From an uncultured Ruminococcus sp. (GTDB lineage: Bacteria > Bacillota > Clostridia > Oscillospirales > CAG-382): 64,000 bases of DNA. Below the pieces are notes generated by a model, which did not search any database, was not told where the DNA came from, and saw only the letters and a program-made list of their open reading frames with translations. The stretch spans positions 5,660 to 69,659 of the forward strand of contig CAYOCM010000001.1 in the NCBI GenBank assembly GCA_964402515.1, read 5' to 3'. Positions 7,104-41,843 of this stretch are shown in pieces (the stretch's first letter is position 1; every line of letters starts with the position of its first letter). The position numbers were made by a program, and so were the translations under genes.

Positions 7104-7919
7104 TCAGCAAAGCAGCTTACCCGCTTCTGAACACAGTTCGCCGGGCATTACTCCGCGCACGCCGTATTTTTTTGCAAGTTCTTTGCCCGCGGCGCTGTGC
7201 GTATGTACGCCGAGCAACGCGGCGTCGGATATGTTCATTCCCTGAGCGCAAAGCGACGCGATAATGCCGGCAAGCACGTCACCGCTGCCGCCTTTGGCAA
7301 GTTCGCTGCCGCCCAATGTGTCGACATACACGGTATCGTCGGGCAAAGCGATAACCGTATTATGGCCTTTAAGCACTGTTACGCAACCGTATTCGGCGGC
7401 AAAATCACGTGCGATATTCTCGCGGTCATTTTGTATTTCGGATATACTCATTCCGGTAAGGCGCGACATTTCTCCGGGGTGCGGTGTGATTATAAGCTCG
7501 CAATGCATATTTTTTATTATATCTTTATGCAAGGAAACAAAATTTATGCCGTCGGCGTCGAGTACGGTGGGACATTTTAAAGACGAAAGTATATAAGGCA
7601 ACAAACTGTCGTATGTTCTGCCTATTCCGCAGCCGATTACGCACGATGTGAATCTGCGCTCGAAAAAGCGATCCGGCGAAACACATATAGCCTCTGGCAA
7701 AGCAAGACGCACTGTATCAAGCAAGGCTTTTTCGCCGGATTGCAAAAGCAGTCCGGCACCGCATCTGAGTATAGCGTTTCCGCAGAGCAACGCGGCACCG
7801 GTCATTTCGCCGCATCCCGTAAGTGCGGCAACCGTGCCGAAATCGGTTTTACAGGACTTTTCGTCACGTTTGGGAACATGCGGAATATTATTATCTTCGA
7901 GAATACATCGTTTTGCCAT
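7104..7919 (-). CDS. nnrD: ADP/ATP-dependent NAD(P)H-hydrate dehydratase (YjeF C-terminal / carbohydrate-kinase fold)
   Basis: GGSGDVLAGIIASL near the C-terminus and HPGE in the middle are typical of the family. ATG 7919 has a GAGGTG RBS 6 nt upstream, whereas the track start GTG 7928 overlaps that RBS. Confidence 0.8.
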   Translation of the reverse strand: MAKRCILEDNNIPHVPKRDEKSCKTDFGTVAALTGCGEMTGAALLCGNAILRCGAGLLLQSGEKALLDTVRLALPEAICVSPDRFFERRFTSCVIGCGIGRTYDSLLPYILSSLKCPTVLDADGINFVSLHKDIIKNMHCELIITPHPGEMSRLTGMSISEIQNDRENIARDFAAEYGCVTVLKGHNTVIALPDDTVYVDTLGGSELAKGGSGDVLAGIIASLCAQGMNISDAALLGVHTHSAAGKELAKKYGVRGVMPGELCSEAGKLLC

Positions 7920-9863: not shown

Positions 9864-12800
9864 ATGAATATTTTGTCTTTGGCTAAAAAGGCTTATCGCA
9901 AGATATGCACAATACAAAAGCATATGCCGCGTTCCAAGCAAGGAGAGTACGCATGGATATACGACAATATGCATCTTATAAACGCGGCCTATAAAGCGGT
10001 AGACAGCGTTAAGATAAGCGCAAAGGAATTGCGTTTTGCGCCAAGGATAGCGCATTTTTGTGACGAAAAAAAGTTTGACTTGCCCGAAGACGAAATATTG
10101 TCGTTTTTAAGCGCCAATGCCGAAGCTATGCGGTTTTCCGCCGCTGCGGTATTTGCCTTGCCGGCAATATTCGATGCTTGCGCACTGATAAAGACGGCTT
10201 CTATATTCGAGACCGGTGAAGGATGCGATATGTTGGCAAATTGCATAACGCTTTTGCGCACGACACCGAATATAGACTGCGACGCACTGTTTGAAGCGGC
10301 ATACCTGCCCGAAGCGCTTTTGAATATTGACGAGCCCTCTTATGCTTTGTTTGACACAGACACAAAAAACAGGTATCGTCTTGCGATATATCATATTGCC
10401 GCAAAAAAACATCTTACCGACCGCGCAGCATACGCACAGATATTTGCAAAAGCCACGGCAAACAAAACATCTGTCGGCATAATGCTGTTCGGAGGCAAAA
10501 ACAAAATGTCGGCAACAATAATATATATTATCTGCTGTGTCGCCGCGGTAATTATGCTGACAATAACAGGAATAAATATTTTCGGATGGATAATGCTGCT
10601 GTGTGTATTGCCGCTTTTTGAAGCGGCGTTTGCCGTGGGCGATTTTGTGATGTCGTTTTATGCAAAAAAATCCACGCTTAAAATATCGCTTAAAAGCATT
10701 CCCGACAGCGCGCGAACGGCGGCTGTAATCACTACATTGCTGCTCGGGCAAAAAGATGATGCCGAAATATTTAAAAAACTTGCTTTGTTTGCGGCATCAA
10801 ACCGCGACAAAAACATTGTTTTTTGCATTCTCGCGGATCTTGCGGATAATTCGCAAAAGACCGCAAAAGATGACAACGCGACGGTTGAATACGCAAAAAC
10901 GCGCATAAACGAGCTTTGCAGCATATACGGCAACAGATTTTGCCTTTATCTGCGCGAAAGGCAATACGCCGAGCGCGACGGGATATGGCGCGCCTACGAG
11001 CGCAAGCGCGGAGCGATAAACGAGTTTATAAGATATCTGCGCGGTGAAAATACGGACGGTGTATTATACGGCAACGCCGACATAAATAATATAAAATATA
11101 TATGCACGCTTGACCGCGACACATATTTGCCGATAGACGCCGTAAAAGAACTTTTGGGTGCCGCACTGCACCCCGTAAATGCGCCTGTAATAAAGGACGG
11201 CAAAGTCGTACGCGGATACGGCATAATTCAACCCGCCGTAAAAACAACGCTTGAATCTGCGTATAATACTCGGTTTTCACGGCTGATATCCGGAGAAGCT
11301 GGCGGCGATGTATATGCAAATGCGATATTCGATCGCAGCATGGCGCTTTTCGGCGAAGGAACATTTTGCGGCAAAGGTCTTATCGATATCGACGTTTTTT
11401 ACAATGCGGTGTTGCCCGCTTTGCCCGAGGGCAAAGTATTGTCACACGATATAGCCGAGGGCGAGATCGCACGGACGCTGTTTATGCCCGAAACAGTGTT
11501 TTGCGATTCGTCACCGGCGACTCCGGCCGCTTATTGCAAGCGGTTGCACAGATGGGTACGCGGCGATGTTCAAAATCTGTTTTTGCTGTGTTCAAAACAC
11601 ATTTCGGCGGTAGGAAAATATAAATTTGCGGCAAACGTGCGACGTGTGCTGATGCCTGTTTCCGCTGCGGCGGCACTGATTTTTGGCGTCGCACTGACAA
11701 GCGAATATAACGCATTGTTTTTGCTGTTTGCATTGTCACATATAGCGGTCCCGCTTTTGCTTTCTGTTATATCGACGATGATATCCGGCGGCGCTTTTAC
11801 GCTGCGCAGATATTTTACAAGGTCTGTATCGGCGTTATCGCAGGCAATCGGATACGCGTTGTGGTCATATTGTTTTGCGGCGGTATATGCCTTTGTAAAT
11901 GCCGACGCAACGATACGTGCATTATGGCGCATGATAAGCGGCAAAAAACTGCTTGAATGGACTACATCCGTACAAACCGAAAATTCGGGCGGAGGCGCTC
12001 TTTATTCTTGCGTTTCAACGGCGGCGGGTGCCGCAATGCTTTTGTTTGCAAAAAGCGGGATTATGCTGATCACGGCAGCGTCGTTCTTTGCATATCCTCT
12101 TGCAGCAACACTGCTGTCTGAAAAAATCGGTTATAAAAAAAGCGGATTCACCGAAAACGACAAAAAAATTCTGGCAGCGGACGCAGCCGAAATGTGGCGT
12201 TTTTTTGAAAACCGTGTCAACGATTCCACCTCAAACTTACCGCCCGACAATATACAGTATTCACCCGAGATGCGCACGGCAATGCGCACATCGCCCACGA
12301 ACATCGGGTTTTATCTTGTTTCGGTCATTGCGGCAAGAGACCTGGGTCTTATTGACACAAGCACTTTGGCAAAGCGTGTTATAAAATGTTTGAGCAGTGT
12401 ATCCGAACTGAAAAAATATAAAGGTTGTCTGTATAACTGGTATGATCTGCGAAATCTGCTGCCGCTTGATAATTATGTTTCATCGGTCGACTGCGGCAAT
12501 ATGCTTTGCTGTCTTATCGCGTTGCGTGCGGGACTGTATGAATATCTCGGTGAATGCGACGAACTTATGGCGGCAATAGACTTGTGCACGGCAGAGATTC
12601 AAAAAACAGACCTTGCGATATTTTATAATCAAAAACGCGGATTGTTTTCGCTTGGAATAAACGTAGAAAACGGTGAAAAAGACTCGGTATGTTACGATCT
12701 TTATATGAGTGAATTCAGGCTGACGGCGTATGCCGCGGTCGCGTTGGGATATGCCGACAAACGCTCCTGGCGCGCATTGGGACGTACATGCACCTCACAT

Positions 12801-15800
12801 AAAGGATATATAGGAATGCTCAGTTGGTCAGGCACCGCGTTTGAATATTTTTTGCCGTCGCTGTTTTTGCCTGAATATAAAAACTCGTTTTTGATAGAAT
12901 CGCTTGAATTTGCATATATGATGCAAAACGAAAAACAAAAAAACGGCATGACCGGCATATCCGAAAGCGGATATTATGCCTTTGACTCGGCAATGAACTA
13001 TGCCTATCGCGCACACGGCGTACCGCAGTTGGCTCTATGCAAATACGATACCGACATGTCGGTATACTCGCCATATTCGGCATACCTTATGCTTTGCCGC
13101 AAAGACAGAGAGATAATAAATGCATTAAACGCTTACCGCGATGCCGGAATGCAAGGCGAATACGGGCTGTATGAGGCAAATGATTTTGCCGTCGAAAAAT
13201 CCGGCGGACTGATAGTGCGCAGTTTTATGGCGCACCATATCGGCATGAGCATTGTCGCATGTGCCAACGTATGTTTAGATGATATTTTTATAGCAAGGTT
13301 TACATCGGATCACCGCATTGCCGCGGCACTCGAACTTTTAAAAGAACGCGTTCCCGACGGTGTGATTCTTTATAAAAACAACGGCGCGGCAAGCAAGGTT
13401 CCCCATGAGATGACGGCCCAACGCGTTGTCCCTACGGGAAACTTTTCGCTGTCGGAACCCGAATTTGCGTTGTTGTGCGGAAACGGAGTCTCGGCAGTAT
13501 GCGATTCATCGGGGCATATAATGATGAATTTCGGCGGCAATATGCTGAATGTATGTGATTTTGATAAATATTCGCTTTTACCGTCTGTTATAATAAGGTT
13601 TTCATGTGACGGCGAACACTATGGTTGCACACAGTTGCACGGTGACGGACGATACAGCGGTGAATACGGTATGAGATATGCCTCGCAGATAAACTCATCA
13701 TCGGCTTTTACGGGCAAAACCGTGATACGCACGGGACGCTCAAGGCCGGGATTCTTTTTTGAAACCTCTGCCGACAACCGCAAAAAATACGCTGTGACGT
13801 TTTGCTTTGAACCGAGTATGGACAAAAAGCGCGATTTTGAGTCGCATCCCGCTTATTCAAGGCTGTTTTTAGAAGCAAAATATAACAGCGAACTTAACGC
13901 GTTGATATTTACACGGCGCGCCGATAAAGGCGTAAAATGCATCGTCGCGGCGATACGAGACAAGCATATTAAATACAGTTTTACGACATCAAAAGAAGGC
14001 CTGTCGGCATACGGCTTAAGCACGCCCGAAGATTTAGACAGAATAATACCCGACGGACGCACCGGCACCTGCATAAATCCTTTATGCTTTATGCAGACCG
14101 ACGAGATACGCGGTGCCAAGACATGTTTTATAGTCACTGCGGGCGAAAACGAGCAAGCTGCATTGTCAAATCTTGTTGCTTTGCGGCTTGAGGCAAAATG
14201 CTCGGCTGTCAATGAACCGACATCGGATATTCTTTCGCTATGCCTGCGCAAATGCTGTATGAAACGACAGATAACCGTTTACGACGATATACCGCAATGT
14301 GACATTTCGGCTTTGTGGCGACACGGCATAAGCGGAGACAGATGCCTGATAGTACTTGATGCCTCACCGCGCTCGGATGCGGCACTTGACGCGTGGATAT
14401 CCGCATACGCAACTCTGGCACACGGTTTTATACGCGCCGAGATGGCGATATGCATACAAGAAAACGACAACTATAACAGACCGCTTGAAAAATATATACG
14501 CAGGCTGTGCAATGCCAAAGGTCTGGCAGGACATTTGGGAAATTCGGGCGGAATAGTGATTTTGCACGGCCGCCACGACGAACTTAAGCCGCTTGCCGAC
14601 ATATATGCCGACCTATCAAAACTGACACTGCCGCATTCGGATTGGATATATACAGACGGATTGCCGACCGTGCGATGTTTTGCCGGTGAAAAAACAATAT
14701 ATGACGGTGACAAGAATACGGTGTTGCCAACTGCCGAAGGCGGTTTTATTCAAGGCGCGTATATCATTGACACATCATTACCTCCCCCGTTGCCGCGCAC
14801 ATTTGTTATGGCGAACAAAAACGGTTTCGGTGCCGTAATTACGCACGCGTCGCTCGGTTGTTCGTTTGACGGAAATGCGCGTGAAAGCCGTATTACTTTT
14901 GCCGCGTCGGATCCGTTTTGTCTGCAAAGCGGCGAAAGGATATTGTGCCGCATAGCAAGCACGGTATACGATCTGTGCTCATGCGCAGACACGGTTATTT
15001 ATTACGCGGGGCACGCCGAATACAAAGGCAAAATATTCGGATATTCATATACGGTAACAACTTTAATACACCCGCAAATCAACGCAAAAATAACCGACGT
15101 CTGCTTTGACGATACCAACAGGTTTGATCTTGCGCTGTATATCAGGCCGTGTTCGCCCGACGGAATAGATCAAAACACGCATATTGCCGCAAAAAGAGCG
15201 TCAATCGCAGGCACCGAAGGAATTATTTTTAAAAACATTCCGCAAAGACACGCAATGCACGATTTTTATGCGGGCGGCGAAAGTTGCAACGTAATGACAG
15301 ACCTTGCCGAATTTATCATAGGACAAAAAGGCGGCGACGACTGCATTTTGTTAAAACGCACAGGCGGCGGCAGGTTTATTATTTCATGCTGTGAAGCAGC
15401 CGATATAAACCGTTTGCGCAAAACCGACATAAGTATTCTGTGTGATGAGGCCGATAAAGCGGCAAGAAATTTTATACCAGCCGCAGATGCAAAACTGCCT
15501 TCGCAAAGCCTTGAGGCTTTGCTGAAACTGTTGCCTATACAGGTAGGCGTGTGCAGACTGCAAGCGCGCACTTCGTTTTGGCAATCCGGCGGAGCATTCG
15601 GCTTTAGAGATCAGTTGCAAGATTGCATGATGTTGGTCTATTCGGTGCCGGAAACAGTTAAAAATCACATACTGAATGCCGCCGCTCATCAATATACCGA
15701 GGGAGATGTGATGCATTGGTGGCACGAAGGCATAGGCGGCGTGCGCACAAAATGCTCTGACGATATGCTTTGGTTGCCTATTGCAGTATCGGAATATATA

Positions 15801-39345: not shown

Positions 39346-39375
39346 ACAGACAAACAATATGTTTTGGAGGGCATC

Positions 39376-40437
39376 ATGGCAAAAATGAAAATAGCCATAA
39401 TCGGCTGCGGTACCATCGCCAATAACGCGCATATTCCCGCATATCTTAAAAATCCCGACGTAGAAATCAAATATTTCTGCGACATCATTCTTTCAAAAGC
39501 AGAGGCAGCGGTTGAAAAATACGGCTGCGGCATAGCTGTTGAAGATTATCACGAGATACTCACCGACCCCGAGGTTGAGGCAGTATCTGTCTGCACACCC
39601 AACCTTATGCACTCGGTAATTTCTATCGATTTTCTCAAAGCGGGCAAAAACGTTTTGTGCGAAAAACCCGCCGCACGCATTTATTCGGAAGCTCTTGCTA
39701 TGCAACAGGCTCAGCACGAGTCGGGCAAAGTGCTTAACATAGGCGTTGTCAATCGCTTTAACGCAGGTGTCAACAAGCTTCGCTCGATGATTCAAAACGG
39801 CGATCTCGGCGAGGTTTATGCCGTATATGTATCGTTCCGCGCTCACCGTTCTATACCCGGTTTGGGCGGCGCATTTACCACCAAGGCTATCGCAGGCGGC
39901 GGCGTTCTTATCGACTGGGGCGTACATTATCTCGATATCGTCATGTACTGCATGAACGATCCCAAGCCTCTTACCGTTTCTTCAAAAGCGTTCTCAAAAC
40001 TCGGCGTCGATATGCCCAACTATGTTTATAACGGCATGTGGGCAGAAGATACCAAAGACGTCAACGGCACTTATGACGTTGACGACTATGTTACCGGCTT
40101 TGTTCGCACCGAAGGTCCCACCATCACCTTTAACGGCGCATGGGCACAGAATATCGGCGTATCCGAGACATACATCGATTTTCTCGGCACCAAAGGCGGC
40201 GCAAGACTGCAATACGGTTCGGACTTTACTCTTTATACCACCGCTTGCGGCGAGCTTATCGAGTTTAAACCCCGCTTTACCCCCAACGCTCATTTTGAAA
40301 ACGAGATCAACAGTTTTATACGCTGCATAAAGACCGGCGAAAAACTGCCCTCGCACATCGACACAGTCATCGTCACCGCAAAGATGATGCAGGCTATGTA
40401 TGATTCGTCAGAGCAAGGCAAAGAAATACAGCTTTAA
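39376..40437 (+). CDS. Gfo/Idh/MocA-family NAD(P)-dependent oxidoreductase
   Basis: Rossmann motif KIAIIGCGTIANNAHIPAY and the LCEKPAA motif. ATG 39376 is preceded by GGAGGG. Confidence 0.85.
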   Translation: MAKMKIAIIGCGTIANNAHIPAYLKNPDVEIKYFCDIILSKAEAAVEKYGCGIAVEDYHEILTDPEVEAVSVCTPNLMHSVISIDFLKAGKNVLCEKPAARIYSEALAMQQAQHESGKVLNIGVVNRFNAGVNKLRSMIQNGDLGEVYAVYVSFRAHRSIPGLGGAFTTKAIAGGGVLIDWGVHYLDIVMYCMNDPKPLTVSSKAFSKLGVDMPNYVYNGMWAEDTKDVNGTYDVDDYVTGFVRTEGPTITFNGAWAQNIGVSETYIDFLGTKGGARLQYGSDFTLYTTACGELIEFKPRFTPNAHFENEINSFIRCIKTGEKLPSHIDTVIVTAKMMQAMYDSSEQGKEIQL

Positions 40438-40504: not shown

Positions 40505-40924
40505 TTATGTTGTTGAATTCTTCTCTGTTGTCCACGTTGTACCGTTAAATGTTGCGGTGTAGCCTTTATCCGTGTCGGTATAGGAGAAGGATGTGAATGT
40601 TCCATTGGATACATTATATTCAAAATATTTAGGGTCAGTATCATATTTTACATCATTACCTTTTACATTATCAATAGTCATTTTATTGATCTCTTTAGTT
40701 GTCGTTTGTGTATTATCGTTTCCGTCAAGTTTGCCGTCGGAAAGATCAAGCGCATATGCTTCTTTATAAAGTGCTGCGGCAACCTGCTGTACGGCAGATG
40801 CATTGGCTTTTTCGATAACGTTGCTGAATGTGGGAATCATCACCGCGGCAAGAATAGCAATTACGGCGATGACGATAACGAGCTCTACTATGGTAAAGCC
40901 CTTTTTGTTTGTGATTTTTTTCAT
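40505..40924 (-). CDS. Type IV pilin / pseudopilin-like protein (prepilin N-terminal cleavage/methylation domain)
   Basis: The N-terminus MKKITNKKG|FTIVELVIVIAVIAILAAVMIPTF has a short basic leader, Gly at -1, Phe at +1 and Glu at +5. AAGGAG RBS. The coding sequence is visibly AT-rich. Confidence 0.85.
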   Translation of the reverse strand: MKKITNKKGFTIVELVIVIAVIAILAAVMIPTFSNVIEKANASAVQQVAAALYKEAYALDLSDGKLDGNDNTQTTTKEINKMTIDNVKGNDVKYDTDPKYFEYNVSNGTFTSFSYTDTDKGYTATFNGTTWTTEKNSTT

Positions 40925-41148
40925 GAGTCGCTCCTTAAAAAAATGTTTTTTATGTCTGAATTAAATTTTGGACGCGCGCCGACGGTAACCGAGCCGCCCT
41001 TCGCACGCCTTTTGACGACCGGTTAAAAACCCGCGGTGCCGCATTTAAAGCACACGTGCCTCGCAAACACGTTTGCAACCCGAACTCAACAAACAGGCTG
41101 CGGCTCCGCCGGTAACGCCGCCTAATATACTATTAGGCGTACGTTTAT
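40925..41148 (-). promoter_or_regulatory. Long 5' leader (about 220 nt) of the pilin gene with a GC-rich core; candidate cis-regulatory RNA
   Basis: Spans the distance from the predicted TSS (just downstream of the -10 at 41155-41160) to ATG 40924. The core 40971-41120 is 93/150 = 62% G+C by hand count, next to an AT-rich gene. It contains complementary segments, for example GGAGCCGC (41103-41110) and GCGGCTC(G) (40991-40998). Confidence 0.4.
41119..41142. repeat. Palindromic site A (CGCCTAATA-TAC-TATTAGGCG + TAC) at about +6 to +30 of the pilin promoter
   Basis: 9-3-9 palindrome. These 24 nt are the exact reverse complement of 41245-41268. Confidence 0.8.
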
Positions 41149-41154
41149 GGTGTG

Positions 41155-41183
41155 ATTATACCCTTTTTATACCGTTTTGTCAA
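41155..41183 (-). promoter_or_regulatory. Perfect-consensus sigma-A promoter of the pilin gene
   Basis: Minus strand reads TTGACA, a 17-nt spacer, then TATAAT. Confidence 0.65.
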
Positions 41184-41244
41184 GTAGTTTTACGATAAAA
41201 AATGAACTTTTTATGTGTTAAAATGTTTCGGGCACTAACAAAAT

Positions 41245-41271
41245 GTACGCCTAATAGTATATTAGGCGTAC
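41245..41271. repeat. Palindromic site B (GTACGCCTAATA-GTA-TATTAGGCGTAC), perfect 12-3-12, about 110 bp upstream of the predicted TSS
   Basis: A perfect 27-bp palindrome, the inverted copy of site A. It lies next to the terminator of the upstream NUDIX gene. Confidence 0.8.
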
Positions 41272-41302
41272 AAAAAGACCGTCTTCGCAGACGGTCTTTT
41301 TG
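41272..41302. terminator. Terminator after the NUDIX gene (bidirectional shape)
   Basis: AAAAA, then GACCGTC-ttcgca-GACGGTC, then TTTTT. Confidence 0.8.
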
Positions 41303-41324
41303 CGTTATTAAGCGTATTTAACTG

Positions 41325-41843
41325 TCAGTTATAAACGTCGATGCCTATTGAGGCATAATATTCGCCGAAATCGCGCACCTGTGACTTTATGCATTCATCG
41401 GATGTGATAAACTTTGCAAAATTGTCAAAATCAAGCCAACGGTATTCAACCGTTTCTCCCTCTTGCAAAACCACGGCGTCTTTGTCGCAATCGGTAATGC
41501 CGAGATAGGTATAATATATCGTCTGTTTGGGGTGCGAAACGACTGTTTTTAAAAATATCAGTTCGCACGGGGTTATGCCCGTTTCTTCAAACAGTTCGCG
41601 GCGCATACCTTCATCGGGTGTTTCGCCCTTTAGCATAGAACCGCCCGCGGTTGCCTCAAAATATCCGGGATATGCATCTTTTGTATAATCGCGCCGCATA
41701 AGCAGATAACTGCCGTCAATATGTTTGACAAGCACGGCACAGACGCCGTGATATATTCCGCCCGGAATAGGTTCGTCACGCACAAGGTCGATGCCCACTT
41801 TTGTTCCGTCGGCATTTAAGCCGTCCCATATCTCGCGTTTCAT
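41325..41843 (-). CDS. NUDIX hydrolase
   Basis: Nudix box GGSMLKGETPDEGMRRELFEETGI. ATG 41843 is preceded by AAAGGA. Confidence 0.8.
   Translation of the reverse strand: MKREIWDGLNADGTKVGIDLVRDEPIPGGIYHGVCAVLVKHIDGSYLLMRRDYTKDAYPGYFEATAGGSMLKGETPDEGMRRELFEETGITPCELIFLKTVVSHPKQTIYYTYLGITDCDKDAVVLQEGETVEYRWLDFDNFAKFITSDECIKSQVRDFGEYYASIGIDVYN

Follow-up and report, generated by a model that had tools for sequence, protein, structure and literature searches.

An invertible promoter segment and a probable, covarying leader RNA in front of a type IV pilin-like gene of an uncultured Ruminococcus sp.

A total of 64,000 nucleotides (nt) of DNA from an uncultured Ruminococcus sp. (contig CAYOCM010000001.1, positions 5,660 to 69,659; hereafter the window) were available for the analysis of a type IV pilin-like gene on the minus strand (40924-40505) and of the region directly in front of it (40925-41148). 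Our analysis suggests that this region is the leader of a type IV pilin mRNA that is subject to phase variation and to two layers of control, one being the inversion of a promoter segment (an inverton) and the other a structured RNA recognised at its loops, a reading that we hold with slightly better than even confidence. The comparison of homologous leaders indicates that the leader RNA is probably real, undescribed, regulatory and narrow in distribution. The RNA motif falls within the known kind of structured 5' leader elements. The genome to which the window belongs comprises 1.27 Mb in 122 contigs and is 81% complete; its contigs are referred to as C1 (that of the window), C2, C5 and so on.

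A branched RNA domain in the pilin leader

Folding and covariation delimited a three-way-junction domain of 85 nt in the leader (41029-41113, minus strand). The domain consists of a closing helix of 13 pairs, P1 (41113-41099 with 41043-41029), and of two hairpin arms, H1 (41098-41078, loop UUUGUUGAGUU) and H2 (41076-41050, apical sequence UUUGCGAGG). Folded in isolation it has a mean pair probability of 0.93, and its energy is -38.8 kcal/mol for the sense strand and -30.1 kcal/mol for the antisense strand. A covariance model of the domain matches the window at 41033-41109 (E 1e-15). Downstream of the domain the minimum-energy fold contains a second GC-rich hairpin (40971-41009, minus strand), closed by the stem GGCGUGCG/CGCGCGUC. 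In this second-hairpin region 25 nt (GTCAAAAGGCGTGCGAAGGGCGGCT) are identical in the orthologous locus L106, and an equivalent closing stem can, as judged from the sequences, form in L106 and in the pilin homologue locus L104 (GGCGUGCG/CGUGCGCC and GGCGCACG/CGUGCGCC).

The leader had been singled out in an initial annotation for its base composition, complementary segments and repeats. The content of 62% guanine plus cytosine (G+C) given there for the leader core (40971-41120) proved an exact count (62.0%), compared with 45.5% for the window mean, 38.6% for the pilin gene and 33.5% for the promoter region, and 0.2% of the 150-nt windows in the 64 kb reach this value. All the short motifs named were found on the minus strand: GGAGCCGC at 41107, GCGGCTC at 40997, GCAAACGTGTTTGC at 41076, GCACGTGTGC at 41059 and GTTACCG at 41116 and 40989. 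Their structural interpretation stood in part. Both segments of the proposed long-range pairing are present, but conservation singles out the proximal UGCGGC.CCGC, not the distal GCGGCTC, as the partner of GGAGCCGC. The two local palindromes exist as described, but comparison with homologues identifies them as the two arms of the single hairpin H2. The direct repeat is likewise there (86% identical over 14 nt), but it is lost in the ortholog L106.

Conservation of the fold in homologous leaders

Five leaders were compared: that of the window (C1), those of its paralogs on C57 and C5, and those of the orthologs L106 and L107 from another sample, the last two having been obtained by a search for pilin protein homologues followed by contig look-ups. 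Local alignment revealed a 47-nt block common to the window and C57 leaders (z 9.8) and a weaker match with C5 (z 4.1). The C5 pilin gene, the first gene of a pilus cluster, has a fixed promoter and is without the recombination sites described below. The C1, C57 and C5 leaders, each folded alone, gave P1, H1 with a U-rich loop containing UUGAG, and H2 of 11-13 pairs, with mean pair probabilities of 0.81-0.96 across the three folds; this three-way junction is also the fold obtained for L106 and L107. Folding of C57 and C5 is, in addition, better than that of shuffled sequences (z about -3).

The two arms of P1 are unalignable between the three paralogs and yet complementary within each of them. 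This complementarity was matched by none of 2000 flank shuffles for C1, and its p values were 0.0025 for C57 and 0.026 for C5. Comparison of C1 with C57 over 31 pairs found 100% of them paired with 10 double changes, against 30-51% paired and 0-3 double changes when the partners were slid. In the hand alignment of all five sequences, the rows of which were verified, gaps removed, against the actual leaders, 98.6% of the cells of 32 pairs are paired (two of 141 are unpaired) and 24 of the pairs have double changes; shuffles of this alignment gave 69 +/- 3% paired (maximum 79%) and 11.8 +/- 2.3 double changes (maximum 19). An Infernal alignment of four sequences gave 92.9% paired over 31 pairs and 12 double changes, with 76.6 +/- 3.1% paired in shuffles, none of 500 being as high, and a covariation score of 0.47 versus 0.22 for the shuffles. 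The MAFFT leader alignments (A1, A2, A3 and A5) were set aside in favour of N-padded input (A7) and the Infernal alignment (A10); MAFFT misplaces the arms because the loop lengths differ.

A model built from C1 and C57 only recovered both orthologs at full length, L106 with an E value of 3.6e-9 and L107 with 1.5e-9. Both hairpin loops, UUGUUGAGUU and UUUGCGAGG, are 100% identical in the four close members, and the stems are 35-56% identical between the window type and the C57 type. The junction strand J3 differs in sequence and in length across the five members (UUUAAA, ACAUAU, GCCUC, CGCCUC and UUU). Without selection on an RNA fold, it would be difficult to account for arms that are unalignable but complementary and for loops that are invariant. 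The collection of homologous pilin leaders and a covariation test had been proposed in the initial annotation, and the outcome agrees with its expectation of a structured RNA: as far as aligned sequences can tell, the secondary structure is kept through compensatory substitutions in the four homologous leaders.

A second type of hairpin, with a 13-nt loop UUGCUCGCAAC(A/C)U on unrelated stems, was observed at C57:4420-4450 (minus strand) and at C5:7240-7252. The core of its loop, CUCGCAA, is the exact complement of the H2 loop UUGCGAG, and a loop-loop contact inside the C57 leader is conceivable.

A promoter between lox-like inverted repeats

The promoter upstream of the leader, which the initial annotation took as fixed, lies on an invertible segment. 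It reads TTGACA-17-TATAAT (41183-41155, minus strand), agrees with the sigma-70-type consensus at 12 of 12 positions and is the sole strong promoter match; it predicts that transcription starts near 41148, which would make the leader about 224 nt long. The promoter is flanked by inverted repeats of 28 nt (41119-41146 and 41241-41268) that are 96% complementary and leave 94 nt between them. Each repeat is a palindrome of the form CGCCTAATA-NNN-TATTAGGCG. The 3-nt centre is TAC, read on the pilin strand, at the distal site IR-L (41241-41268) and GTA at the proximal site IR-R (41119-41146), so that the sites, which as such have no strand, are lox-like in sequence, with palindromic arms around an asymmetric spacer. 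Two copies of this site pattern are present in the window, where 0.03 would be expected. The short segment bracketed by the sites (94 base pairs, bp; 41147-41240, minus strand) carries the -35 element TTGACA at 41183-41178 and the -10 element TATAAT at 41160-41155 and faces the pilin gene, which is the ON state. In the ON state IR-R would be part of the transcript, in the minimum-energy fold of which it forms a hairpin of 9 bp; the predicted 5' end is about 10 nt away.

Both orientations of such segments were found among orthologs and paralogs. The pilin encoded on contig L106, which comes from another metagenome, shares 72% identity with that of the window, and the contig has both the leader and the switch. 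The segment of L106 has to be reverse-complemented to match that of the window (76 of 113 positions identical, against a score of -3.5 for alignment in the same sense), so that the switch is ON in the window and OFF in the ortholog. Contig L107 (ENA ERZ27259959, k141_3428), from the same sample as L106, is the ortholog of the C57 locus. Its nucleotides 1-96 repeat, as the reverse complement and without a mismatch (96 of 96 nt), the flank of its own leader at 245-340; the leader is thus joined to both ends of the segment, and the ON and OFF junctions stand on one contig. Since the assembly word of 141 is much longer than the site, L107 needs reads of both orientations in that sample. The paralogous switches on C2 and on C8 and C19, described below, likewise differ in orientation.

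These comparisons indicate that the on/off control of the window pilin gene is promoter inversion, a system of a known kind. The inverton is probably the dominant control of the gene; its anatomy can be read directly from the repeats and the promoter, and its mechanism is what we infer from them.

The favoured reading and its alternatives

Under the reading that we favour, inversion of the promoter between the lox-like sites would switch the gene on and off, the promoter facing the gene in this assembly. The transcript would form a 5' hairpin from the proximal site and then the 85-nt three-way junction, after which come the other GC-rich hairpin and the ribosome-binding region, which is rich in AU. 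The domain would exert its effect on the RNA, once transcription has started: its loops may be bound or cut by a protein or RNase that acts in trans and so sets the lifetime or the translation of the pilin mRNA, and in window-type leaders P1 and the sequence GUUUUU that follows it may add factor-dependent attenuation. The loops are conserved, the junction is not, and the same domain heads the pilin gene of a pilus operon with a fixed promoter, which argues for a recognition or stability element.

Several points weigh against this reading. The hand alignment was fitted to the structure, which inflates its pair counts, and the members are few and linked by recent duplication or descent, so that the shuffle tests make the significance look greater than it is. 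For the leader core, the folding energy is no better than that of shuffled sequence (z -0.41 and -0.94), and the C5 copy is weak by covariance model (E 2.3). The distribution is very narrow, with five copies in two samples: covariance model R1 gave weak matches only among 60 congeners, the best of them within a coding sequence starting MRNIAVLGFGVVGGG; model R2 gave none among 400 genomes from 178 genera of the order; and model R3 gave, among 60 other loci, only the divergent C5 copy at the E value just quoted. The transcription start site and the leader transcript are predictions from the promoter match, and flipping is deduced from other loci and samples rather than from this organism's own population. 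As to function, the proposal is drawn from analogy, and the binding factor is hypothetical.

A bolder form of the favoured reading holds that the leader represents a new signal-responsive RNA class for type IV major pilin genes. A protein or ligand would read the two invariant loops and gate either an attenuator made of P1 and the U-run or the survival of the mRNA, and the pilins would be gated stochastically by inversion and conditionally by RNA. We put this forward as tentative and consider it rather improbable.

The strongest rival is that the leader has no function and is spacer DNA inherited through pilin duplication, its structure being due to GC-richness and shared ancestry. The energy of the core within the shuffle range, the lack of a wider distribution, the hand-fitted alignment and the fact that all members are paralogs or close orthologs are what such a spacer would lead one to expect. 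It does not account well for P1 arms that are unalignable across three paralogs and complementary in each, for 24 pairs with double compensatory changes and just the two unpaired cells, for invariant loops on stems of 35-56% identity, for C57 and C5 leaders that beat their shuffles, or for an independently built model that recovers the orthologs at full length. We therefore regard a functionless leader as unlikely.

Aptamers are commonly built as three-way junctions that a P1 helix closes. The junction could on this ground be the aptamer of a new riboswitch class, in which P1 would be stabilised by a small ligand, for instance a cyclic dinucleotide, and this helix and the U-run would together terminate transcription before the pilin gene. 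The covariation backs the fold, and the U-run GUUUUU stands directly 3' of P1 in the window (41024-41029, minus strand), where it provides five U, and is kept as U6 in L106. The type IV pilin genes of Clostridioides difficile are, moreover, under the control of cyclic di-GMP (c-di-GMP) riboswitches (PMC6200980, PMC6366702). The scans for known families lend this rival no help. Rfam 15 gave no match in the whole 64-kb window at gathering thresholds. At E <= 10 over 40800-41400 it gave chance matches only, from microRNA and small-RNA models far below threshold, with neither a c-di-GMP family nor any other riboswitch family among them. The best Rfam overlaps in 40925-41148 come from the two palindromic sites and not from the GC-rich core. 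The covariance-model scans exclude c-di-GMP-I (RF01051) and c-di-GMP-II (RF01786), and the leader RNA belongs to no known riboswitch family.

The conservation pattern, too, fits a metabolite riboswitch poorly. Conservation lies in the hairpin loops only and not in the junction strands, in either sequence or length. The U-run after P1 is absent from the C57, L107 and C5 leaders, so that the members seem to share no expression platform. Riboswitch classes normally span many genera, and this motif is absent from the 400 genomes of the order. In the window, P1 closes an 85-nt branched domain, not a simple hairpin, before GUUUUU follows, and the terminator scan did not report the pair of P1 and U-run; from the sequence, P1 and the U-run could nevertheless act as an attenuator. 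We consider a new aptamer quite doubtful. Of the regulatory-RNA proposal in the initial annotation, the structured RNA of a possibly undescribed class is thus supported, with no Rfam match to remove its novelty, and the riboswitch is not supported.

It is very improbable that the block acts as DNA, as a set of operators for a dimeric transcription factor that works as a roadblock or repressor downstream of the promoter, for although H2 is an inverted repeat in DNA, the two loop types (TTGCGAG and TTGCTCGCAA) contain, as read by eye, near-palindromic TTGC/GCAA cores and the sense and antisense folds of C57 are equally stable, the arm sequences that a protein would read vary and their complementarity alone is kept, a closing helix with arms about 55 nt apart is meaningless for a DNA operator, and the sense fold beats the antisense fold in C1 and in C5 (-38.2 vs -21.9 kcal/mol for the C5 domain) because of the G-U pairs, four in C1 and nine in C5, which become A-C mismatches on the opposite strand.

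Distribution of the motif

Within its own genome the domain precedes three small, major-type pilin genes, of which two are switched and one is constitutive. It is absent from the large pilin-like genes, whose leaders measure only about 30-40 nt. The window leader is present in the genome as a single copy, and the complementary arms at its ends vary from member to member; a miniature inverted-repeat transposable element or other repeated mobile element was rejected on these two observations.

Beyond the five members, searches for the motif were negative. Model R1 found none in 40 other loci, a search with the leader sequence gave no match in 40 relatives, and an exact-motif scan of metagenome contigs found none. 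Pilin homologues at 52-63% identity have leaders that are short or unrelated, and the junction is missing from all the other homologue loci (L104, L105 and L108-L117); what remains of it in L104 is an H2-like hairpin, the loop of which is the same and the stem different. Within the reach of these data, the motif appears confined to one species-level lineage.

The pilin gene and its surroundings

The monocistronic pilin gene (40505-40924, minus strand) was recognised from its open reading frame (ORF) and from two family models, with 28.8 bits and E 8e-7 against PF07963 N_methyl (cut-off 21.2) and 27 bits against TIGR02532 (cut-off 16.3). Its product has 139 amino acids (aa) and starts MKKITNKKGFTIVELVIVIAVIAILAAV. 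The N-terminus reads KKGFTIVELVIVIAVIAILAAV, which agrees with the prepilin motif for cleavage and methylation and the hydrophobic helix after it that mark type IV pilins and pseudopilins. A protein search returned 1932 homologues at E <= 1e-10, and exact-protein look-ups found no identical record for either the window pilin or the NUDIX protein encoded upstream of it. An oxidoreductase gene (39364-40437) is convergent with the pilin gene.

Upstream of the pilin gene the minus strand carries, in order, the terminator of the NUDIX gene (41302-41271), the promoter and the leader. The terminator is an intrinsic one (41271-41302, minus strand; inverted repeat I2, 100% complementary), with a 14-bp stem between A and T runs, and it shields the switch from read-through. 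The gene-proximal end of the leader (40925-40970, minus strand) is AU-rich (26% G+C) and includes the Shine-Dalgarno sequence AAGGAG at 40936-40931. A weak AU-rich hairpin at 40914-40944 (14 pairs, two mismatches; inverted repeat I4, 86% complementary) could mask both the Shine-Dalgarno sequence and the AUG of the pilin gene; reading of the sequence by eye found that it is not kept in the C57 leader.

Two further candidates in the leader were rejected. An ORF of 42 aa (41078-40950) was not accepted as a leader peptide, being without a convincing ribosome-binding site by eye; its likeness to frames in C57 and C5 is explained, again by eye, by the hairpin arms. A sigma-54 promoter in the conserved block was dismissed on reading the sequences, as its spacing is one off in C57 and its GG is missing in C1 and C5.

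Genes for pilus assembly are present at another place in the genome. The type IV pilus cluster at C5:7138-14012 begins with the fixed promoter and structured leader mentioned above, followed by the pilin gene, which a stretch of 100 N interrupts at 7558-7657, three small genes for pilin-like proteins (minor pilins), a 400-aa gene and a prepilin peptidase gene (10211-11080), and it ends with a PilC-like gene and a PilB-type ATPase gene (12321-14012), an arrangement of the type pilD-pilC-pilB. Since this cluster encodes prepilin peptidase, PilC-like protein and PilB-type ATPase, the orphan pilin of the window has its assembly machinery at another locus.

A family of promoter switches and a candidate recombinase

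A total of 19 lox-like sites were identified in the genome. Six complete pairs were found among them, at a spacing of 128-147 bp: C1:46778-46927, C2:20028-20195, C8:19830-19997, C11:21216-21373, C19:6250-6416 and C57:4516-4664. Each pair brackets a homologous promoter segment, and all six adjoin a gene with a prepilin signal (139, 698, 615, 350, 826 and 121 aa). The promoter points toward the gene at C1 and C2, and away from it, toward the neighbouring terminator, at C8, C11, C19 and C57. The gene starts at C2 (ON) and at C8 and C19 (OFF) are near-identical, so that the segment is present in both orientations beside paralogous genes. Of the 19 sites, eight (on C11, C21, C37, C39, C47, C54, C67 and C100) lie at most about 90 nt from a contig end, the position at which invertible DNA makes assemblers break, and the true number of switches is therefore probably at least 10 in a genome of about 1.3-1.6 Mb. 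The two sites at C19 (6250-6270 and 6396-6416) have unequal centres, GTA and GTC, and differing arms; judging by these differences, the C19 switch, which stands OFF before the 826-aa pilin-like gene, may be locked.

A tyrosine recombinase gene directly abuts such sites in two other metagenome-assembled genomes (MAGs; loci L026 and L040). Its ortholog in the present genome lies at C21:3287-4201 on the minus strand, encodes about 315 aa, is 59% and 49% identical to the L026 and L040 genes, and matches PF00589 and PF14659 (N-terminal SAM-like domain). No gene of the Resolvase family (serine recombinases) was found in the genome, at its completeness of 81%. The C21 tyrosine recombinase probably flips the segment and is a candidate master invertase.

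The same site core, paired around promoters, was also found in other uncultured Clostridia MAGs. In the MAG CAZHPZ01 (L023, L027, L031, L037, L041, L043, L053 and L054) at least six pairs of site cores, 138 bp apart, stand before pilin genes; between homologous flanks, the segment in L023 and L041 is opposite to that in L027 and L053. The pilin leaders of this MAG, of about 240 nt, are alike among themselves and have no similarity to the motif of the window, and no convincing consensus fold was obtained for them (-13.4 kcal/mol, with a positive covariation term). At L039 (CAYSUO010000040.1, nt 240-560) an array of roughly 60-nt imperfect repeats (…ACGTTGCTATAAAGCTACGCTAACACTCTTTT…) occurs directly after an inverton of the same family and before the next gene. 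A metagenome scan for the site pattern returned only five unrelated palindromes.

Comparison with known systems

The inverton layer has several counterparts. The Mpi system of Bacteroides uses a serine recombinase and acts on capsule loci. The present system differs from it in its tyrosine recombinase candidate, its uncultured Clostridia-type host and the position of every complete switch before a prepilin-type gene. It resembles multi-locus invertons, as in Bacteroides fragilis Mpi and in the PhaseFinder and DeepInverton surveys (PMC11602134, PMC11892184), in that many promoters with one repeat type serve surface-structure genes of a gut bacterium through a remote recombinase, which here is a candidate. 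In Escherichia coli fimS, which governs type 1 fimbriae through FimB and FimE, a promoter on a short invertible segment also drives a major pilus subunit gene, and the enzymes are tyrosine recombinases. The fimS switch belongs to a chaperone-usher pilus, is a single locus with 9-bp repeats and has its recombinase genes alongside, whereas the genome analysed here, of about 1.3 Mb, carries six or more complete switches, the genes behind them are type IV pilin-like, and the candidate recombinase is encoded at a distance.

At the flgB locus of C. difficile, the promoter lies upstream of the invertible switch, which acts after initiation. Here, in contrast, the promoter is inside the invertible segment, the sites are lox-like palindromes with a 3-nt asymmetric centre, and the RNA is no known riboswitch. 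The flgB leader is comparable in stacking DNA inversion by RecV and a leader RNA (there a c-di-GMP riboswitch) before a surface-appendage operon, and in the use of a remote tyrosine recombinase that serves several switches, for which a candidate exists here (PMC5903667, PMC9286219).

The RNA layer shares with C. difficile pilA1 (c-di-GMP-II, RF01786), and with c-di-GMP-I (RF01051), a long structured leader before a clostridial type IV major pilin gene. It differs from both classes in that no junction or pseudoknot signature is conserved in the motif, where conservation is found in two hairpin loops. The nearest precedent for the favoured function, as far as the discussion in PMC6958937 extends, is pilA2 of Clostridium perfringens, where the processing and stabilisation of the mRNA by RNase Y (Obana et al. 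2017, discussed in PMC6958937) represent the control of a clostridial major pilin transcript after initiation via upstream sequences. There is no relation in sequence or structure between the two, and the pilA2 case, as described in that discussion, is the cleavage of an operon transcript, whereas here a cleavage or binding factor is only proposed.

Significance

Uncultured gut Clostridia seem rich in pilin-like surface proteins. The results presented here indicate that in one small genome at least six prepilin-type genes stand behind copies of a single flip-switch. If the leader domain were only a stabiliser, it would be a modest addition to the leader motifs of narrow range. If the fold is functional, it would constitute a compact 85-nt element for the post-transcriptional control of pilus subunit supply, its loop sequences would offer a handle on the binding factor, and stochastic and conditional control would be stacked on one gene.

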